Shown: positions 7,409-51,295 of the stretch, one piece after another
Position numbering within the stretch: position 1 is the first letter of the stretch
Layout of the letters: each line of letters opens with the position of its first letter
From: an uncultured Planctomycetaceae bacterium
Lineage (GTDB): Bacteria; Planctomycetota; Planctomycetia; Planctomycetales; Planctomycetaceae
Length of the DNA: 64,000 nt
Direction: 5' to 3'
NCBI GenBank assembly: GCA_963815195.1
Contig: CAWFGE010000019.1
Span: 32,001-96,000 of the forward strand
Program-made: the position numbers and the translations under genes
The notes under the pieces: generated by a model
The model's input: only the letters and a program-made list of their open reading frames with translations
Databases searched by the model: none
Told to the model about the DNA's origin: nothing

Positions 7409-7453
7409 GTGGAATACGACTGTAGTAGCCAACAACGAGGTGGTTCCGCCTAA
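7409..7453 (+). other. Candidate 14-aa micropeptide ORF (MEYDCSSQQRGGSA, GTG start) or part of a small RNA
   Basis: AAAGGAGGTG at 7394-7403, 5 nt upstream of GTG 7409; lies in an otherwise gene-free interval closed by a terminator. Confidence 0.45.
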
Positions 7454-7580
7454 CCAGACAGCCGGCGGGTTGTCCTCGAGGCAACCACCGACTCGTAGGA
7501 TCGTCTCTTTTCTTGCGTCCGGTTTGATTCAGCAACCCTGAAATCAGCCGGTCAACAATCGATCCATCACGAGACACAAG

Positions 7581-7628
7581 CAGAACCCGATGCCCCTTTG
7601 ATGCGGGCATCGGGTTCTGTCTCGTTTT
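7581..7628 (+). terminator. Rho-independent terminator
   Basis: 15-bp perfect stem CAGAACCCGATGCCC / GGGCATCGGGTTCTG followed by TCTCGTTTT. Confidence 0.8.
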
Positions 7629-7656
7629 AGAGACCCCGTTTCGTAGCGGCGCGTCC

Positions 7657-8041
7657 AGCCTCCGGCCTTTGAATGTGAGCGGAAGGCGCTAGCCTCCGGC
7701 CTTTGAATGTGAGCGGAAGGCGCTAGCCTCCGGCCTTTGAATGTGAGCGGAAGGCGGCTAGCCTCCGGCCTTTGAATGTGAGCGGAAGGCGCTAGCCTCC
7801 GGCCTTTGAATGTGAGCGGAAGGCGCTAGCCTCCGGCCTTTGAATGTGAGCGGAAGGCGCTAGCCTCCGGCCTTTGAATGTGAGCGGAAGGCGCTAGCCT
7901 CCGCCCTGAGTCTTTGAATGTGAGCGGAAGGCGTCAGCCTCCGGCCTTTGAATGTGAGCGGAAGGCGCTAGCCTCCGGCCTGAGTCGATGAAGGGAAATC
8001 CCCACAAAACTCCAGGCCCGCGGCTAGCACCTTGCCGCTCA
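7657..8041. repeat. Tandem array of nine ~34-bp units (AGCCTCCGGCCTTTGAATGTGAGCGGAAGGCGCT) ending in an inverted partner arm
   Basis: TTTGAATGTGAGCGGAAGG occurs nine times between about 7668 and 7965; CAGGCCCGCGGCTAGCACCTTGCCGCTCA at about 8013-8041 is an imperfect reverse complement of the last unit. Confidence 0.95.
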
Positions 8042-9372: not shown

Positions 9373-9402
9373 AACACCGGGTCTATCGCCCTGCGATTCT
9401 GG

Positions 9403-9510
9403 CTCTTCCGGCGAATCGGGGGGTAGACGTGGATGATCTTTTTGTGTGATGATCAATGAATGGAATGATGGATTTCACCTCCCCTTTGGGCCCTTTGGGG
9501 AGGTGAAAGA
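9403..9510 (+). repeat. ~110-bp dispersed repeat with a terminal hairpin, copy 1
   Basis: Near-identical reverse complement at 38109-38220; ends in a TTTCACCTCCCC-loop-GGGGAGGTGAAA stem. Confidence 0.9.
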
Positions 9511-15126: not shown

Positions 15127-15426
15127 ATGAATCCAATTCTCAAGAGCGTGTGCTACGCGGTTGCCGTGCTGGGGCTGGGATTTCACGGCTTGTTTTCTGA
15201 TACGGAAGAACCGCCGACACCGCCGGTCAAAACGCTGATTCTTCCCGGTGAGTCGTTCCTCGTCGAGGGCCGCCCGGCGTTCATGTTGCTGCCGCCCCCG
15301 GATAAGCGACAAGACCCGCAGCCGTGGATTCTGTACGCCCCCACCCTGCCGGCCTATCCCGACAGCCATGAGAAATGGATGCACGAGCAGTTCCTCCAGG
15401 CAGGCGTGGCCGTGGCGGGGATTGAA
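15127..15426 (+). pseudogene. 5' fragment of a secreted alpha/beta hydrolase, truncated at the edge of the accessory region
   Basis: Signal peptide then PWILYAPTLPAYPD...QFLQAGVAVAGI; coding-like sequence ends at about 15425 and the frame runs on antisense into the WD40 gene. Confidence 0.6.
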
Positions 15427-31900: not shown

Positions 31901-32304
31901 GATGGCTCCCCTTTAGGCGGGTGATCTTGAGGATACTTGAGATGCCGTTGTTTGATCATGTTGATCAGCACATCCAGCCCGACGGCCAATTGATGGGCCT
32001 CGGTGAGGAGCGCATCGATGCGTTCGTTAAGAATGCGATTTTTTTCCTTCCGCGAGAGCGGGGAACTGCCGTTGGCGACGAACACTCCCGAGCCCCGCCG
32101 CGTTTGCACGACGCCTTCGGACTCGAGTTCCCGATAGGCCCGGGCCACGGTGTTGGGATTGATCATCAACTGCTCGGCGAGCCGGCGGACCGAGGGGAGT
32201 TTTTCCTCGACCTCCAGCCGCCCCGACGCGACCAGGAACTTCACCTGGTTCACGACCTGCTGGTAATAAGGCGTGCCGTCGGCTTCGTTGACATAAATCT
32301 GCAT
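31897..32304 (-). CDS. GntR family regulator (YtrA subfamily)
   Basis: PYYQQV...KLPSVRRLA...INPNTVARAYRELE...RRGSGVFV with a short C-terminus; heads the ABC operon. Confidence 0.93.
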   Translation of the reverse strand: MQIYVNEADGTPYYQQVVNQVKFLVASGRLEVEEKLPSVRRLAEQLMINPNTVARAYRELESEGVVQTRRGSGVFVANGSSPLSRKEKNRILNERIDALLTEAHQLAVGLDVLINMIKQRHLKYPQDHPPKGEPS

Positions 32305-38108: not shown

Positions 38109-38220
38109 CTTTCACCTCCCCTTGCTTGGGGAGGTGAAATCCATCATTCATTCCATTCATTGATCATCACACAAAAAGATCATCCACGTCTACCCCCCCC
38201 CCCCCGATTCGCCGGAAGAG
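38109..38220 (-). repeat. ~110-bp dispersed repeat with a terminal hairpin, copy 2
   Basis: Reverse complement of 9403-9510; differs in hairpin loop, G-tract length and a short indel. Confidence 0.9.
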
Positions 38221-38318
38221 ACAAAAATCTCGCATCGGCCGCCCAGCCCTCCTTGGAAAAAATGAGGGCCTATCGCAAATGGATTGTGTGACTCCAGACC
38301 CCGTCATCCCAACGAGAG

Positions 38319-40047: not shown

Positions 40048-40164
40048 GGCGGCGGCCTCCAATCGGTAATCCGGTAAGCTACCGGATTATCCGTGGCTTT
40101 TGGCCGCTCCGCCTGGGTGGAGCGGGTGAGCGTCAATAACGCCCTCAGCAAGATTTCTGAAAAG

Positions 40165-40237
40165 TGGACAGGGGGGGAATCGAACCCCCGACACCAGGAT
40201 TTTCAGTCCTGTGCTCTACCAACTGAGCTACCTGTCC
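40165..40237 (-). tRNA. tRNA-Phe(GAA)
   Basis: Cloverleaf with GGACAGG/CCTGTCC acceptor stem, CAGGA-CTGAAAA-TCCTG anticodon arm and TTCGATT T-loop. Confidence 0.97.
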
Positions 40238-40322
40238 AAAATGCTTATTCAAAGGTATTTTTGGTGTTTCGATCAATCAGGGCCAAGACGCCACCTAAAC
40301 CCTTTGAGCAGGAGGTGATGTC

Positions 40323-40642
40323 GTGGGCAATCCTATCAAAAAAACTCCGCAACGCAAGTACGCAAACCCCAAACCTCCAAAACCGTATCCGGGATTTCCG
40401 CTCTTCCCCCATGCGTCGGGTCAGTGGGCCAAAAAGATCCGCGGCAAGCTGGTGTACTTCGGCGTCTGGGCTTCACCCGAAGCCGCCCTCGAACGACTCA
40501 ATCGCGAGTGGCCCTATCTGAAAAATGGTCGAACCCCACCCCCCGAACACATTTCGGAAGCGGGCTGTACAGTGCGGGAACTCTCGAACGATTTCTTATC
40601 CAGCAAGAAAGCGAAGCTGCTGGCTGGCGAACTTTCTCCGCC
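40323..40642 (+). pseudogene. N-terminal remnant of a second tyrosine integrase
   Basis: KPPKPYPGFPLFPHASGQWAKKIRGKLVYFGVW...TVRELSNDFL...GELSP, then an abrupt switch to unrelated sequence. Confidence 0.7.
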
Positions 40643-41676: not shown

Positions 41677-41774
41677 GTTCTTCACGTCGCGCCATTGGGG
41701 GGCAGGAGTTCAACGCGGTAATTCAATGAAACCGAGACAACCATAAAATCCCAGGCGTCTTTCTGCCACTGTTG

Positions 41775-41783
41775 TGGTATAAC
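41775..41783 (+). promoter_or_regulatory. Candidate extended -10 promoter of the ECF gene
   Basis: TGGTATAAC (TGn-TATAAC) 40 bp upstream of the TTG start. Confidence 0.4.
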
Positions 41784-41822
41784 CGGTGGCAGGGGGTTCC
41801 CCCGATATTTGAGGCCACGCCC

Positions 41823-42392
41823 TTGCCCGACGTCACCCGCATCTTGTCGCAGATTGAAGCCGGTGATCCGTCGGCGGGAGAGCAACTCTTACCGCTGGTG
41901 TATGACGAACTGCGAAAGTTGGCCGCGGCCAGGATGTTTCAAGAGAAGCCGGGGCAAACGCTGCAAGCGACTGCATTGGTGCACGAGGCTTATCTCCGGT
42001 TGGTGGATGTCGAGCAGGCCCAGCATTGGAACAGCCGAGGGCATTTTTTCGGGGCGGCGGCCGAGGCCATGCGAAGGATTCTGGTCGAGAACGCCCGGAG
42101 AAAAAGCGGACCCAAAGCGGGTGGCGTGCATTGCCGAATGGAATTGTCGGAAGTGGCGGTGGAAATTCAGAAACGTGACGTGGATCTGATCGCTTTGAGC
42201 GAATCGCTCGACAAGTTGCAAAGCCAGGATCCCCGGGCCGCGGAGTTGGTCAAGCTGCGTTTTTTTGCCGGGTTGACCCGGCGTCAGGCGGCAGAGGCCC
42301 TCGGTATATCTGTCGCAACGGCTGATAATGACTGGGCTTACGCAAAAGGTTGGCTGAAGGCGGAACTTGCGGGAACATTCGGCTCCGGATGA
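41823..42392 (+). CDS. ECF sigma factor, kinase-associated (TIGR02999-like)
   Basis: DVTRIL, LLPLVYDELRKLA, TLQATALVHEAYLRL, AAEAMRRILV and VKLRFFAGLT motifs. Confidence 0.95.
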   Translation: MPDVTRILSQIEAGDPSAGEQLLPLVYDELRKLAAARMFQEKPGQTLQATALVHEAYLRLVDVEQAQHWNSRGHFFGAAAEAMRRILVENARRKSGPKAGGVHCRMELSEVAVEIQKRDVDLIALSESLDKLQSQDPRAAELVKLRFFAGLTRRQAAEALGISVATADNDWAYAKGWLKAELAGTFGSG

Positions 42393-42496: not shown

Positions 42497-45400
42497 ATGG
42501 CTGGCGAAATCCTCGACGAAAAAGCGATCTTCAACGTCGCCCGGAAAATCGATTCGGAGGAGGCGAGAGCGGAATATCTGCACCAGGTCTGCGGGGCCGA
42601 TGGAAATCTGTTTGAGCGAGTGGACACGCTGCTCCGCGCGTACGAAGAGCAGGCGAGCTTTCTGGAATCGCCCGCCGCCGATAGCTTCTCTCCCACGATT
42701 GATCAACCGCCGTTAGAAGAGCCCGGCACGCAGATCGGCCCCTACAAGTTGCTGCAACAGATCGGCGAAGGGGGCATGGGCGTGGTCTATATGGCCGAGC
42801 AGTCCGAGCCGGTGGAACGGCGGGTCGCCCTGAAGATCATCAAGCCCGGCATGGATACTCGGCAAGTCATCGCGCGGTTCGAGGCCGAGCGGCAGGCGCT
42901 GGCGATGATGGATCATCCCCACATCGCCAAGGTGCTCGACGCGGGCGCGACCGACAGCGGCCGGCCGTATTTCGTGATGGAATTGGTCAAAGGCGTTCCG
43001 ATCACGCAATACTGCGACGAACGCCATCTGACGCCGAAGCAGCGATTGGAGTTGTTTCTTTCCGTGCTCCTGGCCGTTCAGCACGCGCACCAAAAAGGCA
43101 TTATTCACCGCGACATCAAGCCCACCAACGTGCTGGTGGCGGAATATGACGACAGGCCGGTGCCCAAGGTGATCGACTTCGGCGTGGCCAAGGCCACCAG
43201 CCAGAAGCTAACCGAGAAGACCATGTTCACGGAATACGGGCAACTCGTGGGCACGCTCGATTACATGAGTCCCGAGCAGGCCAAGCTCAACCAGATGGAC
43301 ATCGACACGCGGAGCGACATCTATTCGCTGGGCGTCCTGCTCTATGAACTGTTGACGGGCGACACGCCTTTCGATCGTACCCGCCTGCGGTCCGCCGCTT
43401 TTGAGGAGATGATGCGGATCATCCGCGAGGAAGAGCCGCCCAAGCCCAGCACCCGGCTCAGCACCAGCCAGATGTTGGCTTCCGTTTCCGCCAATCGCAA
43501 CACCGAACCCAGAAAACTCAGCACGCTGGTCAAGGGGGACTTGGATTGGATCGTGATGAAGGCCTTGGACAAGGACCGGGGCCGGCGTTACGAGACCGCC
43601 AACGGCTTCGCGGCCGACCTTCAGCGGTATCTGGACAACGAACCGGTCGAGGCTTGCCCGCCGTCTGCGACATATCGGCTGACAAAGTTCGCAAGGCGAA
43701 ACCGGGGCGTACTGTTGACAACAGCGGTTATCGCGCTGGCCTTGGTCTTGGGAACCGCAGTCAGCACGTGGCAGGCCATCCGCGCGATCCACGCGGAGAG
43801 CCAAGCCCGAGACAACGAGACACGCGCAATCGGCGAGGAACGTAAAGCCAACGCCGAAAGAGAACGGGCGGCGGCCAGCGAAAAACAAGCCGAGGCCGAT
43901 TTCCAAAAGGCGCTGGAAGCCGTCGATCGCATGTTGTTCCGCGTCGCGGATGATGCGCTCCGCAACGTGCCCCAAATGGTGCCAGTGCAAGAGAAGGTTT
44001 TCAGGGATGCCGTCGAGTTTTACGAAAAGCTGCTCGCAGATCGTCCCCGTGATCCTAAGTTGCGTTTTGCAACCGCGATGGCCTGCAAGAACCTTATCGG
44101 ACACGATAAGGTTGGCAAACCCCAGAAAATGCTGCAACGCGCCCTGGAAATACTTAACGAACTGCATGAGGAATCGCCTGAGGACTCGGAGGTTCGGCAT
44201 GCTCTCGCGCATTGCTATAACTGGCTGGGATGGAAGGGTGGGGACAGTCTCATTTCAGCGGAAAATTGCCATCGCCGTGCAATCGAGTTGATGCTTCCAC
44301 TGAAGGACTCACGTCCCGAAGACCTGGCACGCAGCTATGGGAGCCTCGCAGTGAATCTGAAGGCACAACGCCGGTTCGATGAGGCCGAGCAGACGTTTCG
44401 AATGGCGCTGGAGTTTGGCTCCGATGACGGGCAGGTTTACCACGGACTGGCGCTTTTGCTGGAACGGGTCGGACGCGTTTCGGAAGCGATCGACGCCATG
44501 AATCGCGCAATTGATGCAGCGCAAAATTCCATCCACGACTCCTCCAAATGGAGAACAAATGCTGAGGAAAGACTCGCTTCCGACCATTCTCACCTGGGTA
44601 GCATGCTGATTCGTGCCCAGCGACCGGAAGAGTCCCTGCCGCATCTTCTGAAGTCTCAACAGATTTATGAACGTCTGGCGCGCGACTTTCCCAGTTTGGA
44701 CCGATTCAGCGGCGCGTTAGACCGGTCACGGGCTGCGTTGGTGGGGGCCTACCACACACTCAAGAAAGATGAAGCTGCTCGGCAGATCCTGGTTCAACTC
44801 CAACCCAGCACGGCGCAGGAATATCTGACACGGGGTAATCTGCGCAAAACGCTGGGGGAGATGCCAGAGGCTCTCGCCGACTACGACAAGGCCATTGAAC
44901 TCGACCCCGCGAATGCCAAGGCGTATTTACAACGCCAGCTTCTCCATCAGGAATTGGGCCAATTCGATCAGGCTGTGATCGATCTGACGCACAGGCGCGC
45001 TCTGATGCCGGAGAGATCGGACATTCACAACAGTCTCGGCGTCGCCCTCGACAAAAAGGGAGATCTGGACGAGGCCATCGCCTGCTACGAAAAGGCTATC
45101 GAACTTGATCCGAATTACGCTCTAGCGCACAGCAATCTCGGCGCCGCGTGGGCGAAGAAAGGATTGCATGACAAGGCCATCGCCTGCGACAAGAAGGCCA
45201 TCGAACTTAGTGAGCAATTGGTCGCTGATTTTCCCGAGAATTCGAGTTACCAGGGGAGTCTGAAGAAGTGCCACGACTCGTTCGCCGTCAACGTTCGGAG
45301 AGTGGACCCGATCGAGCGGGCGGAGCAAGTCCGTCTTGATGCTCTCGCGTTTTACGAGGCGTTGGCCAAACAGTTTCCAAAGCGTTCCGCCGCGCATCGT

Positions 45401-46705
45401 GCGCGAGAGGCCGCCATGCGTGAGAGCCTGGCCGAATTGTTGAAAACGACGAACCGACCTCAGGAGGTCGAGGAGCACTATCGCCGTGCTCAGGCGATCT
45501 GGCAGCAGCTCGTCGTCGAGTTGCCTGAAAAGCCAGAGTACGCGGTCCGTCTCGCGGTCGGCGACACTCGGCTAGGAAAATGGCTTGCCGCTCAAAGTCA
45601 TTTTAAGGCAGCGGAGGCGGCCTACCGTCAAGCGGTTCAAGGATATGAGAAACTCGCCAGGGAATTCCCCAAAAGCAGCGGTTACCAGATCAATCTGGCC
45701 GATTGTCACACGGATCTCGGCGATTTTCTGGCTCGCTCAGCCCGGCTTGGCGAGGCGGAACAATCGCACCGGCAGGCCGTCACGTTGCTGGAAAAACTGG
45801 TTGTGGATGACCCGGGCAATTCTGCCTATCGGGCCAGGCTGGCCCACAAGCAAAACTGGCTCAGCGGCGCGCTCAAGGCGTTGGGCCGCGACACGGAGGC
45901 CGAAGAGGCGATACGACAGGCCCTATGGACTTTCGAGAATCTCGCCGCCGAATTTCCAGAAGTCGCCGATTACCGCTACAACTTAGCTTGGGAGCATCTT
46001 TACCTTTCTAATCAGATGTTGGCTGCCAGTCGGACTGCCGAGGCGGAAAGGGAGAATGCTCAGGCTCTCGATCTGTTCGCGGCCGTCGCCGCCGAGGCGC
46101 CTACGAACGCCAAATACCGTGCAGCATTGGCGTCTACTCATCACAGATTGGCAATGCAATTTTTGGCCGGCCAGCGGTTCGAAGAGGCCGCGAACGCTTA
46201 CGGCCAAGCCGTGGATCTTTCGCGGCAACTGGTCGCCGATTTTCCCACGAAGTCAGAGTATCCCAAGAGTCTCGCTCTCAACTGCAACAATTTGGCTTGG
46301 CTTCTGGGAACGTGTCCCGAGGCTGGCGTCCGCGATGCCGTCCGAGCGGTTGAGCTAGCCGCAAAGGCAGTCGAGTTGGAGCCGAAGCAGGCGATGTATT
46401 GGAACACGCTTGGCGCGGCCGAGTACCACGCCGGCAATTATCGCGACTCCATAAAAGCGTTTGAAAAATCAACTCAGTTAAGCGCCGATCAACCCGAGAA
46501 TGCCCGCAACACGAGCTTCGATGCCTTCTTCCTGGCCATGGCCCACTGGCAACTCGGCGAGAAGGACGAGGCCCGCAAGTGGTACGACCAGGCCGTCGCG
46601 TGGATGGAAAAGAACAGGCCCAAAGATGCCGAACTGCTCCGCTTTCACCAGGAAGCCGCGGAGTTGCTGGGCATCGGTGACACGAATCCCGAGACGAAAA
46701 AGTAA
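42497..46705 (+). CDS. Membrane-anchored Ser/Thr kinase with C-terminal TPR repeats
   Basis: IGEGGMGVVY, HRDIKPTN, DFGVAK and GTLDYMSPEQ; TM helix after RRNR; many TPR-like repeats. Confidence 0.95.
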   Translation: MAGEILDEKAIFNVARKIDSEEARAEYLHQVCGADGNLFERVDTLLRAYEEQASFLESPAADSFSPTIDQPPLEEPGTQIGPYKLLQQIGEGGMGVVYMAEQSEPVERRVALKIIKPGMDTRQVIARFEAERQALAMMDHPHIAKVLDAGATDSGRPYFVMELVKGVPITQYCDERHLTPKQRLELFLSVLLAVQHAHQKGIIHRDIKPTNVLVAEYDDRPVPKVIDFGVAKATSQKLTEKTMFTEYGQLVGTLDYMSPEQAKLNQMDIDTRSDIYSLGVLLYELLTGDTPFDRTRLRSAAFEEMMRIIREEEPPKPSTRLSTSQMLASVSANRNTEPRKLSTLVKGDLDWIVMKALDKDRGRRYETANGFAADLQRYLDNEPVEACPPSATYRLTKFARRNRGVLLTTAVIALALVLGTAVSTWQAIRAIHAESQARDNETRAIGEERKANAERERAAASEKQAEADFQKALEAVDRMLFRVADDALRNVPQMVPVQEKVFRDAVEFYEKLLADRPRDPKLRFATAMACKNLIGHDKVGKPQKMLQRALEILNELHEESPEDSEVRHALAHCYNWLGWKGGDSLISAENCHRRAIELMLPLKDSRPEDLARSYGSLAVNLKAQRRFDEAEQTFRMALEFGSDDGQVYHGLALLLERVGRVSEAIDAMNRAIDAAQNSIHDSSKWRTNAEERLASDHSHLGSMLIRAQRPEESLPHLLKSQQIYERLARDFPSLDRFSGALDRSRAALVGAYHTLKKDEAARQILVQLQPSTAQEYLTRGNLRKTLGEMPEALADYDKAIELDPANAKAYLQRQLLHQELGQFDQAVIDLTHRRALMPERSDIHNSLGVALDKKGDLDEAIACYEKAIELDPNYALAHSNLGAAWAKKGLHDKAIACDKKAIELSEQLVADFPENSSYQGSLKKCHDSFAVNVRRVDPIERAEQVRLDALAFYEALAKQFPKRSAAHRAREAAMRESLAELLKTTNRPQEVEEHYRRAQAIWQQLVVELPEKPEYAVRLAVGDTRLGKWLAAQSHFKAAEAAYRQAVQGYEKLAREFPKSSGYQINLADCHTDLGDFLARSARLGEAEQSHRQAVTLLEKLVVDDPGNSAYRARLAHKQNWLSGALKALGRDTEAEEAIRQALWTFENLAAEFPEVADYRYNLAWEHLYLSNQMLAASRTAEAERENAQALDLFAAVAAEAPTNAKYRAALASTHHRLAMQFLAGQRFEEAANAYGQAVDLSRQLVADFPTKSEYPKSLALNCNNLAWLLGTCPEAGVRDAVRAVELAAKAVELEPKQAMYWNTLGAAEYHAGNYRDSIKAFEKSTQLSADQPENARNTSFDAFFLAMAHWQLGEKDEARKWYDQAVAWMEKNRPKDAELLRFHQEAAELLGIGDTNPETKK

Positions 46706-46875
46706 TCAACAAGTTTGTGCCGCGCGAGTGAGCGGCAAAAAAAGTGACCGGTGAGGATCGAGCCGCCAAGCACCGCCCTCACCGGTCGGAACCCGTCCCC
46801 GGCGATCGGTCTGCGCGCGGGGGCATGGTCTATCCCATCTTATCGCGGACCGCTTTTCAGCGGGAGAGAAAGATC
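46691..46875 (+). repeat. Structured leader repeat, copy 1 (overlaps the kinase stop)
   Basis: GAGACGAAAAAGTAATCAACAAG...GACCGGTGAGG-loop-CCTCACCGGTC-GGAACCCG...CGGTCTGCG...CGCGGACCG...CGGGAGAG then ATG. Confidence 0.9.
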
Positions 46876-48024
46876 ATGTCCAAAACATTTCGAGTGCTGG
46901 CTTTGAGTGTCGTCTTGCTGGTGTTCGCGGCAACGGTGTCCCATTTCGCGGAGGCCAAGGGTAAGCCCGGCGGAGGAGGCGGCGACACAACCGGCTATTC
47001 CATTACGGAGCTTACGCCCCCCGCCGGCTTTGACTCAAGTTATGCCAACACTGCCAACGATTTCGGCGAGGTGGCCGGCGACGCCGGTGCTGACGGCTTC
47101 GCACACGCCGCCTATTGGAAAGTGGACTCGGCCGGCCAACTCCTTTCGGCCGTCGCCTTGCCGCAACTGTTCAATCGTGCTAGCCGCGCCTTTGCCATTA
47201 GCAATTCCGGCGACGTGGTCGGCGGGTCCGACGTAGGACTCGATAACGCGGGCGACAGCATCTCTCACGCGGTGCTCTGGAGGCTCGATTCTGCGGGCAA
47301 CGTCACGAACACGACCGATCTGGGCACGCTCGGCGGCGACTACATCTACAGCGGTGCCAACGGCGTCAATGATTTTGGCTACGTCGTGGGATGGTCCCAG
47401 GTCAAAGTAGCGTCGCCCGACGAGGATCCCATGCCGCGGGCGGTGCTGTGGATCGTGGATGGCGACGGCAAACTGCTGAAGGTCGCCGCCCTGGAAACGG
47501 CCGACAGCTATGCCAACGACATCAACAACAGCGGGCAAATCGTGGGCCGAGCCTTCGACCATGCCGCCTTATGGCAGATCGACGTGGAGGGAAACGTGAT
47601 TTTCGCGACGGATCTGGGCACGCTGGGGGGCCGGAACAGCGAGGCTACGGCGATTAGCGAAACCGGTGACGTGATCGGCTACTCCGAGATGGCCGACGGA
47701 GAAGAACATGCCTTCCGGTATCGCAATGGCGTGATGGAGGACCTGGGCACGCTCGGCGGCACAAGCAGCATAGGCAACGGCGCGAACGGCAATGGGCAGG
47801 TCGTCGGCAGTTCGACATATCCCAGGAGCCAAAACTCGTTCGACCGGCACCCTTTCCTTTGGCAGAACGGCGCGATCTCCGACCTGAGCAAGGCGGGCGG
47901 CCGCTCATGGGATCTCTCTCGTGCTTCAGCAATTGATGCGGGCGGCCGGATTGCGGGGACCGGCACGCTCCAGCTCAACGGAAACACCTGGAAGACCCGC
48001 GGATACCTCTTGACCCCCCAATAG
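46876..48024 (+). CDS. Secreted protein with HAF-type extracellular repeats
   Basis: Signal peptide; repeated DLGTLGG...A.(G/D)(V/I)N..G.(V/I)VG...HA(F/V) units. Confidence 0.88.
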   Translation: MSKTFRVLALSVVLLVFAATVSHFAEAKGKPGGGGGDTTGYSITELTPPAGFDSSYANTANDFGEVAGDAGADGFAHAAYWKVDSAGQLLSAVALPQLFNRASRAFAISNSGDVVGGSDVGLDNAGDSISHAVLWRLDSAGNVTNTTDLGTLGGDYIYSGANGVNDFGYVVGWSQVKVASPDEDPMPRAVLWIVDGDGKLLKVAALETADSYANDINNSGQIVGRAFDHAALWQIDVEGNVIFATDLGTLGGRNSEATAISETGDVIGYSEMADGEEHAFRYRNGVMEDLGTLGGTSSIGNGANGNGQVVGSSTYPRSQNSFDRHPFLWQNGAISDLSKAGGRSWDLSRASAIDAGGRIAGTGTLQLNGNTWKTRGYLLTPQ

Positions 48025-48063
48025 CATCCGTGGCTGGCCCCGCTGGCTTATGAAGCAACACAT

Positions 48064-48242
48064 GAGACGAAAAAGTAATCAACAAGTTTGTGCCGCACGA
48101 GAGCGGCAAAACAAGTGACCGGTGAGGATCAGCCGCCAAGCAAGCCCTCACCGGTCGGAACCCGTCCCCGGCGATCGGTCTGCGCCGAGGGTCTGGTCAA
48201 TTCCATTCTACCGCGGACCGTGTTTCAACGGGAGAGAATACG
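48064..48242 (+). repeat. Structured leader repeat, copy 2
   Basis: Highly similar to copy 1 over its full length, including the GAGACGAAAAAGTAA start. Confidence 0.9.
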
Positions 48243-48249
48243 ATGTTTC

Positions 48250-49239
48250 GTGTATTCCGAGGTATGCTCCAAGAGGCTGACTAGCGAGGTTTGGCGAACG
48301 GCTTTATGCGTTCCGATGGCGATGATTTGTCTAAACCTCTTTGTTGGTTCGGCACAGGCCGGACCGATGTTCGAGGCCTGGACCGCGCACGGAACGTACT
48401 TCAATGACGATTCGCCAGTGACTGCGGTTGGCAGTTACTCTGCCATCAATCCCGACCTTACTTCAAGTATTGCACTTTCCGAGTTCGCGGTTGCGGGTGC
48501 AGGGTCCGTCAAATCGTTCTCTGAACTGACTTGGAACCAAACAGGCCCCGTGCCGGTGGGAACAGTTGCTGGCGCTGCGTCTTATGCCTACCTGAGACTT
48601 GACGATCTCATGATTACCGGGGGACCGACAAATTCCTATGTCCCCGGTGTCCTGAACCTGCACGTGAGTGGCGGCGTCGGTTCCGGCGCAAGCGCGACTC
48701 CGGAAGGCACTCCGAACCTTTCCGCGGGCGCCACGACGCACGTGGCCTTTTCCGCTGTTTGGGGCGGCGGGCCTTATGGCCAGGGTGGGTTTGGAGGGAC
48801 CATCGATACCCTGGTCGGTTCCAACGGATCGAACTCGACAACCACCTCGGGCATTTTCGACAACTTCGACGGCGATGAACTGGTGAAAAGCCAAGAGTTC
48901 TATCTCCTCGTTGGTAGCCCGTTCGGCTTGACTATGCGGCTCGACACAAACGTCCAAGGATTCGGTACGAGCTACTCCAACGGAACACAGATCGACGTGA
49001 CTGCCCTCGCTGACTTCGGGAATACGATCAGCTTTGCCACCGACGGCCCGGTGTTCGACCTTCCCGACGGCTACACCGTCAACTCCGTCCAAGGGCAAAT
49101 CGTCAACAACCGCTGGCTCGGCGGTGCGCCGTCAAGCCCCGTTCCCGAACCGAATAGCCTCATACTGTGTGCAATTGGGGCTCTCGGCCTCGCCGGCCAC
49201 AACTGGCGTCAACGTACACGCGCGACAAAGTCTGCGTGA
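48250..49239 (+). CDS. PEP-CTERM surface protein
   Basis: Signal peptide ending AQA; C-terminal VPEPNS, TM helix and WRQR basic tail; start uncertain because the ATG at 48243 is out of frame. Confidence 0.85.
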   Translation: MYSEVCSKRLTSEVWRTALCVPMAMICLNLFVGSAQAGPMFEAWTAHGTYFNDDSPVTAVGSYSAINPDLTSSIALSEFAVAGAGSVKSFSELTWNQTGPVPVGTVAGAASYAYLRLDDLMITGGPTNSYVPGVLNLHVSGGVGSGASATPEGTPNLSAGATTHVAFSAVWGGGPYGQGGFGGTIDTLVGSNGSNSTTTSGIFDNFDGDELVKSQEFYLLVGSPFGLTMRLDTNVQGFGTSYSNGTQIDVTALADFGNTISFATDGPVFDLPDGYTVNSVQGQIVNNRWLGGAPSSPVPEPNSLILCAIGALGLAGHNWRQRTRATKSA

Positions 49240-49252
49240 TCGCCTACCTAAC

Positions 49253-49377
49253 GCCGGCGAGGAACAGCCGCCAAATAGGCCCACACCGGTCGGAACCCGC
49301 CTCCGGCGCATGGTCTGCGCGGGGGGTCTGGTCAACCCCATTTTACCGCGGACCGTATTTCAACGGGAGAGATAGAT
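49253..49377 (+). repeat. Structured leader repeat, copy 3 (5' shortened)
   Basis: CCGGCGAGG...CACCGGTCGGAACCCG...GGTCTGCG...CGCGGACCG...CGGGAGAG then ATG. Confidence 0.88.
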
Positions 49378-50475
49378 ATGTCCAAAACATTTCGAGTGCT
49401 GGCTTTGAGCGTCCTCGCGACGATGCTCGCGGCGACGGTGTCCCATTTCGCAGAGGCCAAGGGTAAGCCCGGAGGTGACGGCGGCGGCGGGGACACGGGG
49501 GGAGGCACGATTTACTTTAGCAGCAATCCCGGCGGCTTCAGCACGATGGATTCCAATGGCGGCTCTAGAACCTCGCTGGGGATCCACTCCGGTGAGCCGA
49601 GCTTCGAACTGCACAGCGGGCAACGCTGGTACGTGAATGTTCGCGAATTGGCGACCGGAGAGACCTACCCCAACGGGTTGCCCCGGAGTGAACTATTCGC
49701 CTTTAACGAAGGCGGGGCGGTCGTGCAATTGACTAATCAACCTGACCTGGAAGTCTGGTGGCAAGGGTACCGCTGGACTCCAGGGGATAACACGTCTGCG
49801 GGCGATCAGCATGTCTCGTGGACAGCGCGGCGCTGGGAAACCACGACCGACCCCATGACCGGCCAGACTGTGTTTACGGGCAATGTGGTTGATGGAGGCA
49901 TCTACCGCGCAGAGATCTCATTCGCGTTGGGCGAGCCGGTCCTACTCGAACAACCTCCTGTTCCCGTGGTGGCGGTCGAATTGGTTTCCTCTCAGGGTTT
50001 CTGGGAAGCCTATGAGGACGGTCCGACGTTCGCTCCGAACGTGCACTTCCATTCCTGGAGTCCCGGCGGAGCCTTCCTCGTCTACGACCTGCTGGACGAA
50101 CGCAACAAAGGGCTGTGGATCGCTGCCCCGAACAGCAACGATGAGCACCTTCCGGTCTCGTCGACTGGACGGAATCCCGAATGGTCACCGGATGGCGCTC
50201 TGATCGCCTATGATGGCTGGGACGGAATCGAAACAATCAATTTTGACGGCACGAATCCGAAGGCCATCATCTCTTCCACGGCCACGGTCTCCTTCTACGG
50301 GCCGCATTGGTCTCCCACCGGCAGCCACCTGACCTATTCCGCCTTCGATCATTGGTCCAAGCCGTCCGACCCGCTTCCCGGCCGAACTTACGTGTACCGC
50401 GCAACCGCCACGGGGGGTGGGAAGACGAATCTGACCAAGGATTTGAACTCAGCCTCCCCCAGAGCCTGGAGATAA
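49378..50475 (+). CDS. Secreted TolB/PD40-like beta-propeller protein
   Basis: Signal peptide nearly identical to that at 46876; WSPGG, PEWSPDG and PHWSPTG repeats. Confidence 0.82.
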   Translation: MSKTFRVLALSVLATMLAATVSHFAEAKGKPGGDGGGGDTGGGTIYFSSNPGGFSTMDSNGGSRTSLGIHSGEPSFELHSGQRWYVNVRELATGETYPNGLPRSELFAFNEGGAVVQLTNQPDLEVWWQGYRWTPGDNTSAGDQHVSWTARRWETTTDPMTGQTVFTGNVVDGGIYRAEISFALGEPVLLEQPPVPVVAVELVSSQGFWEAYEDGPTFAPNVHFHSWSPGGAFLVYDLLDERNKGLWIAAPNSNDEHLPVSSTGRNPEWSPDGALIAYDGWDGIETINFDGTNPKAIISSTATVSFYGPHWSPTGSHLTYSAFDHWSKPSDPLPGRTYVYRATATGGGKTNLTKDLNSASPRAWR

Positions 50476-50519
50476 TTCGATGGAACCAGGGTCTCCCCAA
50501 AATCTCTGACCCAACAAGT

Positions 50520-50612
50520 GAGACGAAAGAGCGCATGTCGCGGCGAAACAAGTGACCGGTGAGGAACAGCCGCCAGGCAAGCCCTCGCCGGTCGGAACCC
50601 GTTCCCGACAAC
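50520..50612 (+). repeat. Structured leader repeat, copy 4 (3' truncated)
   Basis: GAGACGAAA...AACAAGTGACCGGTGAGG...CCTCGCCGGTCGGAACCCG, then similarity is lost. Confidence 0.85.
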
Positions 50613-50644
50613 GCACGTCGAACGACGAATTATTTCTCTCGCTT

Positions 50645-50775
50645 GTCCGCGCCGGGCAATCTGGGGCCGGGCATGGTGATCGAGAATTCTCCCGGCAATC
50701 TGACCGGCGGAGCCAGCCCTGCCGCCCGGAATGTGATTTCGGGAAACGGCGTGGGGTTTTCCGGAGTGTTTTCGG
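50645..50775 (+). pseudogene. Fragment of a large extracellular beta-helix-repeat gene
   Basis: GNLTGGASPAARNVISGNG resembles the GNxIGG...ARNVISGN repeats of large surface proteins. Confidence 0.5.
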
Positions 50776-50777
50776 GC

Positions 50778-51295
50778 CTAGAGCTTCTTAATGACATGCA
50801 CGCTCGAGGTCAGTCCGGTTCGGGTCTTGGTCTTTCGCATTAAACGCATCGCGGTCTCGATGGTGTCGAACAGCATGCCTTGGCAGGCCCGCGTGACGTG
50901 CGGAAAGAACCGCCGCTCGATCGGGTTATATTTGGAACAATAGGTCGGATAGTGAGCGACCCGGATCGGCAAGCCAATTTCCCCAGCCAATGCCTCCAAA
51001 TCCTGCTTGAAGATATGGTGTCGATAGTTGTTGCTGCCGCCCGCGTCACAGAGCCAAAGGATTTCCGAGGCATGGGGATAATGCTGCCGGGCGATTCGCT
51101 TCCAATACCAGCGGAAGCTCTCGCAGGCGAATTGGCTGGTCTCATGCGAGGTGCCCAGATTGATGTGTCCATGATTGCGCTTCAAATCGTAGATACCGTG
51201 CGGAATGAGCACGCCGTCGGCCCAAGCGTCTGAAACACATTCCGCATCCGCTCTTCGATCTCAGGGTCATACTGATGAAAATACTGAAATGCCAT
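50778..51295 (-). mobile_element. Internally deleted ISAzo13-family transposase pseudogene
   Basis: GGAGG RBS then MAFQYFHQYDPEIEERMRNVFQTL joined out of frame to IPHGIYD...CDAGGSN...HYPTYCSKYNPIERRFF. Confidence 0.85.

Follow-up and report, generated by a model that had tools for sequence, protein, structure and literature searches.

The 64,000-nt stretch of DNA analyzed here (hereafter, the window; positions 32,001 to 96,000 of contig CAWFGE010000019.1, assembly GCA_963815195.1, from an uncultured member of the Planctomycetaceae) carries genes for an extracytoplasmic function (ECF) sigma factor and a Ser/Thr protein kinase and, behind them, an array of genes for exported proteins, referred to here as payloads, that are preceded by copies of the same leader. 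This leader belongs to a family of ~140-base structured repeats that are found before variable exported-protein genes, behind ECF/kinase pairs, in some planctomycetes. The explanation that we favor, as somewhat better than an even bet, is that the leader is a conserved pseudoknot with an antisense RNA encoded on its other strand, and that its core is the homology block for duplication, loss, and swapping of the repeated units. Directly supported are the family itself, its position, the covarying structure, the minus-strand −10 box and terminator, and, at the strain level, a gain or loss whose joint lies within a leader.

The ECF-Kinase Locus and Its Payload Array

Coordinates are those of the window, and features are on the plus strand unless noted otherwise. 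The gene for the ECF43-like sigma factor (41772..42392; PF07638/TIGR02999), with the start codon probably at 41823, is followed by the gene for a 1402-aa Ser/Thr kinase with tetratricopeptide repeats (TPR) at 42497..46705. The four leader copies that had been described in a sequence-only reading of this DNA were all located where it had placed them, with matches far beyond chance. Copy 1, together with a 45-nt upstream block that consists of the kinase tail and a spacer (46691..46875), indeed begins within the final codons of the kinase gene, which ends with its stop codon at 46705. It comprises hairpin P1 (46746-46787, with the loop GCCGCCAAG at 46762-46770), hairpin P2 (46788-46830), the pseudoknot P3 (46808-46815 paired with 46844-46851), and a Shine-Dalgarno (SD) sequence (46862-46866). 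Copy 2 (48064..48242; P1 at 48117-48156, P3 formed by 48177-48184 and 48212-48219, SD at 48230-48234) is 89% identical to copy 1 across 180 nt (E 9e-60) and, as the same reading had noticed, carries a duplicated kinase tail, the initial 33 nt of the tail-plus-spacer block being exact. Copy 3 (49254..49377; 81-86% identity) starts at the first hairpin and has neither the kinase tail nor the A-run; its P1 is weakened, and P3 and the minus-strand −10 box (TAAAAT, 49345-49340) are retained. The truncated copy 4 (50520..50607) holds 9 nt of the kinase tail, so that the tail is there in part, followed by P1 and the start of P2, and has no pseudoknot, −10 box, or SD; its first hairpin is 93% identical to that of copy 2 over 68 nt, and it ends near 50607. 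Independent short-read contigs are near-exact over 46791-47352, 48160-48620, and 50440-50784, covering parts of copies 1, 2, and 4, and no contig among those listed from that run bridges the copy 2 junction.

Payload 1 (46876..48024) consists of a signal peptide, a KGKPGG Gly linker, and a HAF-repeat domain, and payload 3 (49378..50475) has the signal peptide and Gly linker of payload 1 followed by a weakly TolB-like domain. Payload 2 (48243..49239) is a PEP-CTERM-like surface protein that is frameshifted near 48275 in the assembly, where the PEP-CTERM open reading frame (ORF) is not in frame with the ATG that follows leader 2 (48243). As one short-read contig, of depth 4, has one base fewer at 48275, this frameshift is likely a sequencing error. 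Only two homologs of payload 2 were found in 300 genomes of the class, both in G546 and both without a leader. A relative's contig extends the gene fragment behind copy 4 (50608..50790) by ~690 nt, and the array is closed by a fragment of an ISAzo13-family transposase (50778..51212, minus strand; PF07592). The earlier description of the three payloads as unrelated needs correction, as payloads 1 and 3 are 87% identical over their first 109 nt, which encode the signal peptide and Gly linker. As for its domain labels, the HAF repeat scores above the cutoff (TIGR02913), the PEP-CTERM match falls just below it (19.6 versus 20.7 bits), and the TolB-like match is weak and far below.

Distribution and Genomic Neighborhoods of the Leader

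A covariance model of the leader gave 15 matches in the source genome at E 0.001 or better, and four of the six full TIGR02999-type ECF loci of this genome bear 2 to 4 copies (those on C18 and C8 have none). By the same approach, the family is patchy, being found in 22 of 120 genomes of the family and 16 of 149 genomes of the class. A pattern scan of GTDB yielded 127 loci, all metagenome-assembled, of which 110 carry a Planctomycetota label and 17 those of other phyla; these 17 may be misbinned. The strict pattern matched 0 of 300 other phylum genomes; it undercounts, because the covariance model finds the leader in 16 of the 149 class genomes. Viral contigs contained no leader matches, and none of the matches in 72,556 plasmids covered most of the leader. 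With the Rfam 15 covariance models there were no matches up to E 5 in 46500-51000 and only tRNAs in four related loci, in agreement with the initial impression that the leader is not a described element. Literature searches surfaced no description of it either, though one could be present in the motif catalogues that accompany RNA screens as supplements.

Gene neighborhoods were analyzed in 92 long loci (L012-L102 and L116) and the window, which together contain 153 unique leaders, 97 of them with at least 5 kb of upstream sequence. A kinase or ECF gene on the same strand lies upstream of 86 of these 97 leaders, and an ECF gene upstream of 73, compared to genome backgrounds of 3.5% and 0.4%, respectively; 20 leaders are <150 nt from the kinase stop. 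In the control comparisons, an opposite-strand kinase was found upstream of 16 of the 97 leaders and a same-strand kinase downstream of 27 of 92. Among 40 covariance-model regions chosen for long flanks, which partly overlap the first locus set (with a few repeats), 28 have both ECF and kinase genes upstream, 4 have a kinase only, 7 have neither, and 1 has insufficient flank, so that 32 of the 39 informative regions agree. On the other side of the leader, simple sequence rules recognize an export signal in 93 of 102 payloads (59 LEDR-type, 31 Sec-like, and 3 prepilin). The 70 relatives' payloads (of 99) that were scanned against Pfam include propeller, FG-GAP, Calx-beta, lectin, and DUF1559 domains, and more than half have no match. 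Thus, the enrichment after kinase/ECF genes and before export-signal genes that the sequence-only reading had anticipated is present, and payloads do vary among relatives, as seen in a relative's contigs and in G032.

Certain loci show additional arrangements. In L090, 5′ halves of the leader on the minus strand (7428-7501 and 15333-15407) immediately precede ECF genes that belong to tandem ECF-kinase-payload modules; the leader may thus have served to stack whole modules as well. A secreted payload of ~160 aa with the motif AGEQVPFKG recurs in L014, L019, L046, L056, L060, L064, L091, L094, L097, L098, L100, and L102; the two members scanned have no Pfam match, and the next leader-led genes differ by locus. 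Weak, diverged leader-like matches that have no ECF or kinase gene nearby (G000:C4:22669-24786, C15:172324, and C12:1113779) possibly represent a related subfamily.

RNA Structure of the Leader

Covariation defines three elements of the leader: hairpin P1 with the loop CCGCCAAG, hairpin P2, and P3, in which the P2 loop GGTCTGCG pairs with CGCAGACC shortly 5′ of the SD to form an H-type pseudoknot on the plus strand. Two-sided changes were observed at 18 of 33 pairs in 56 diverse sequences; kinship inflates these counts, and none of 500 shuffles and no slid control equalled them. The P2 loop is nearly invariant, and comparative evidence has P3 99% paired. The initial search pattern included P3 and the −10 box, and a retest set was made up of 108 metagenome copies found via the 5′ half alone; P3 is kept in 94 of them. 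Wobble pairs assign these elements to different strands. In P1 and upper P2, the ratios of A-C to G-U (41:19 and 91:43) favor the minus strand, and the ratio of G-U to A-C in P3, which is 23:4 among copies for which P3 was no selection criterion, favors the plus strand. Two other candidates were dropped: a pseudoknot in which the P1 loop would pair with the GATGGC stretch, which covaries with lower P2, and a conserved leader peptide (an upstream ATG occurs in 89 of 174 leaders, in frames 36/27/26).

Predicted Antisense RNA and Proposed Control of Translation

A TAnnnT box, mostly TACAAT, TAGAAT, or TATAAT, occupies one fixed minus-strand position in 57 of the 94 copies that keep P3. Because an A-run is found 5′ of P1 in 83 of 114 copies and a T-run 3′ of P1 in 0 of 114, the terminator is predicted on the minus strand only. 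Given this conserved −10 box, the minus-only terminator, and the minus-strand wobble bias of P1 and upper P2, the minus strand likely encodes an antisense RNA of ~92 nt that covers P1, P2, and the 5′ arm of P3. The predicted genes for this RNA are located on the minus strand at 46736..46842 in copy 1 (−10 box TAAGAT at 46842-46837; RNA from ~46830 to 46736, ending with the P1 hairpin and a U-run) and at 48107..48210 in copy 2 (−10 box TAGAAT at 48210-48205; terminator-like site at P1). For array mates in the window, the predicted antisense-leader duplex reaches 63-87% of the cognate one.

The upstream stop codon is <60 nt from P1 in 102 of 142 copies, so the payload mRNA is likely to be made by read-through from the ECF-kinase operon. 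The leaders showed no conserved ECF-like promoter. The ECF-like GGAAC-N16-GTCT motif of the window is present in 3 of 114, and the idea of an ECF promoter within the leader was given up. In the payload mRNA, the pseudoknot P3 would represent the "on" state, with the pyrimidine stretch that precedes the −10 box kept away from the SD. The antisense RNA, if produced, would upon binding block the pseudoknot and allow the pyrimidine stretch to reach the SD, limiting translation. This stretch pairs with its own SD region better than with those of other leaders (z −4.1 in 180 leaders, a value inflated by kinship; z 0.4 for a control segment).

Several observations speak against this scheme, in which the direction of control is the weakest step. 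The anti-SD pairing is weak (median rank 0.41), and of the 3 full copies in the window, just 1 has a more open SD when the pseudoknot is present. The −10 box is absent or shifted in 37 of the 94 P3-keeping copies, the leader alignments have no conserved −35 box, and a sigma-70 scan called none of the predicted antisense promoters. True double changes in P3 are few (4 of 752 cells), folding z-scores of the single copies are weak (−1.7, −1.7, +0.9, and −2.7), and neither a kinase nor an ECF gene lies upstream of 11 of the 97 and 7 of the 39 leaders. Some of these data suit an alternative in which the leader acts only in cis on the mRNA, as a riboswitch or through protein binding, processing, or stabilization, or in which the opposing promoter causes transcriptional interference or attenuation, with no blocking of the pseudoknot. 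Consistent with it, P3 is better kept than the −10 box, the P2 loop is near-invariant, and the anti-SD signal is weak. However, the fixed place of a TAnAAT box with a free third position, the minus-only terminator, and the wobble bias of P1 and P2 require a minus-strand RNA, and promoterless copies could be served in trans by their array mates. This alternative is therefore unlikely, if the strongest of those considered, and the pseudoknot leader with an antisense RNA is retained as the preferred explanation.

Start of the ECF-Kinase Operon

The ECF sigma factor of the window has the Sigma70_ECF domain, the Thr motif (QATA, where the ECF43 counterpart is QTTA), and a kinase-TPR gene at +1. By domain, motif, and kinase neighbor, it fits the ECF43 group as presented in the supplement of PMC7826278 and in the available passages of PMC13147305; the label ECF217 was dropped in favor of ECF43-like. 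The operon seems to start from a housekeeping-type promoter, the candidate being an extended −10 element at 41775..41783, and similar TAnnnT boxes are found before many related ECF genes. Such boxes stand ~7 nt 5′ of the ECF start codon in L013, L019, L021, L027, L049, L050, and others, an arrangement that suggests leaderless mRNAs transcribed from a housekeeping promoter.

The Repeated Unit and Probable Payload Exchange

In the sequence-only reading, the stacked unit was the kinase 3′ end plus leader plus payload, and the ECF sigma factor turned on all payloads. The exact tail in copy 2, the 9 nt of tail in copy 4, and the strong linkage of leaders to ECF/kinase pairs are as this model would have them, and kinases do activate ECF43 factors, according to the passages seen of PMC13147305. 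However, the upstream flank is shared with the first copy in just 7 of 54 later copies overall and in 1 of the 17 comparable ones (later copies of arrays that start <150 nt from the kinase), namely, window copy 2. The kinase tail is thus refuted as a part of the unit as a rule. With the ECF-like motif so rare in leaders and the operon seemingly under a housekeeping-type promoter, the model as a whole looks improbable. The repeated unit is leader plus payload, and the kinase tail in front of copy 2 is probably a scar that a single local duplication left behind.

A contig from another study's run (X2-14, ~87% identical) encodes the kinase, followed by a single leader and a homolog of payload 3. 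It skips 46819-49328, and the joint, between 46818 and 49329, falls inside the leader. Further contigs of that run contain the end of payload 3, copy 4, and the longer version of the fragment behind copy 4. The clearest array found is in G032, where two convergent ECF/kinase loci (L304, at G032:C41:188001-208000, and L305) feed eight leader-led payloads with Gly linkers. Payloads a and c, as well as e and h, have 30-34 N-terminal residues in common (97%) and are different behind the Gly linker; with window payloads 1 and 3 added, these shared N-termini are 30-36 residues long (84-97%), and each of the three pairs has the leader and signal peptide in common but different domains. Payload e resembles payload 3 of the window and payload h resembles payload 1, so the N-termini track the locus and the domains track the family.

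Traces of probable exchange are also seen within the leader. In leaders that have only the upstream flank in common, the SD-proximal part is as distant as background (0.451 versus 0.457) and the 5′ part is closer; the 5′ half is closer than the 3′ half in 74% of ~21 disjoint pairs of this kind and in 50% of pairs that share only the downstream gene. These patterns would be expected if the leader core served as a homology block through which leader-payload units were duplicated, lost, and swapped by RecA-type recombination. An insertion at a leader would land before the resident payload, so that the last unit would remain the oldest one, in keeping with decay at the ends of arrays: in 42 arrays, a truncated copy is the last in 18 and the first in 2, and the last copy is the lower-scoring one in 31. 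This part of the explanation, too, has evidence against it. X2-14 is a single contig of depth 3.5 in which gain and loss are not told apart. Of 49 array copies, 27 have their nearest leader in their own array and 22 have it outside, so that many cases are explained by local duplication or gene conversion alone; array change seems to proceed by both local duplication or conversion and import.

A site-specific cassette system, with the leader as an attC-like site and the recombinase encoded elsewhere, would account for the sharp 5′ boundary of the leader at the A-run, the presence of one site per gene, the polarity of decay, and the invariant inverted repeat GGTCTGCG/CGCAGACC. However, none of the 36 matches to the tyrosine recombinase family PF00589 in the source genome is within 30 kb of an array, no AAC/GTT triplets of the kind described in the available part of PMC4889954 are conserved, truncation ends scatter over model columns 53-113, and swaps are seen at the Gly linker as well. 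Such a system is accordingly quite doubtful, and the lack of a tyrosine recombinase near the arrays, together with the scattered breakpoints, makes general recombination the likely engine of swapping. A miniature inverted-repeat transposable element (MITE) or another selfish repeat, although it would be multicopy and patchy like this family, is highly improbable, given the fixed polarity of the leader and its fixed spacing to the SD and start codon, the bias for export genes, the RNA-type wobble pairs, and an alignment with no terminal inverted repeats (target duplications were not searched systematically).

Implications

The evidence refutes the kinase-tail unit and points to the leader as the likely site of payload exchange as well. 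A bolder and quite tentative proposal is that these arrays are integrase-free integrons, in which one RNA element would be both the recombination socket and an antisense-tuned translation switch for each cassette. New surface proteins or domains could then be plugged into sensor-kinase/ECF operons under dose-buffering control, with loop variants comparable to plasmid incompatibility groups. Planctomycetes have many ECF/kinase pairs and exported proteins, and the leader marks candidate output genes of these pairs. It also offers a compact putative antisense-pseudoknot switch outside plasmids and, if it does drive payload exchange, an example of variable gene arrays built without an integrase.

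Other Features of the Window

The window region 40164-40620 contains a tRNA-Phe gene and, beside it, the start of a short ORF, which we take to resemble an integrase N-terminus; Pfam and NCBIfam gave no match for it. Taken together with the transposase fragment at 50778, these features give the ECF-kinase array the look of a decayed island. Three congeners showed no syntenic copy of the locus. Elsewhere, there is a tandem array with a period of ~34 nt (7617-8032) and two inverted 56-nt copies with 96% identity that lie 28.7 kb apart (9397-9484 and 38128-38226), possibly a dispersed repeat or element end.

Comparison with Known Systems

In orphan modules of the Rhs and contact-dependent inhibition (CDI) systems, a common N-terminal sequence permits recombinational swapping of variable C-terminal domains, and fragments pile up downstream. 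In contrast, the payloads described here are mostly whole genes, each with its own leader, and Pfam identifies propeller, lectin, and adhesin-like domains in them, rather than toxins with immunity genes.

Integrons and CALIN elements, as described in the accessible part of PMC4889954, are likewise arrays of variable genes with one structured repeat per gene, a probable shared upstream promoter, and decay at the far end. Unlike them, the arrays of the source genome have no intI nearby (PF00589 matches are beyond 30 kb), and the leader alignment, read without an attC model, has no AAC/GTT triplets. The repeat here precedes its gene and carries the SD of that gene along with a likely antisense gene, and exchange looks homology driven.

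The ECF43/Hanks-type kinase pairs EcfP-PknT and EcfK-PknS (PMC7826278 and PMC13147305) share with the window the Sigma70_ECF domain, the replacement of the DAED motif by Thr, and the kinase-TPR gene at +1. ECF43 is listed there as confined to Proteobacteria, and the passages seen of the PMC7826278 supplement and of PMC13147305 do not include a leader or payload array.

The closest parallel to the switch itself is the Inc RNA/repZ pair of ColIb-P9, a pseudoknot switch of I-complex plasmids, as far as it is covered by the portions of PMC4705826 and PMC8383071 consulted. Like Inc RNA, the antisense RNA predicted here would be short and would come from the leader, ~100 nt 5′ of the start codon. 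Both systems have a pseudoknot just 5′ of the SD, indicated here by comparative evidence, including the pairing and plus-strand wobble bias of P3, and a CGCCAA/UUGGCG loop pair. However, UUGGCG falls on the predicted antisense RNA in the planctomycete leader but belongs to the target mRNA in the plasmid system, the P1 loop of the mRNA here is CCGCCAAG, and the pseudoknot is formed by the P2 loop rather than by a GGCG loop. There is no conserved leader peptide frame, and the targets are chromosomal exported proteins in multicopy arrays, with no match among the plasmids searched, instead of a plasmid replication initiator. Although it fails three defining features of the Inc/repZ switch (loop polarity, leader peptide, and plasmid target), the planctomycete leader would, by analogy, work like it.

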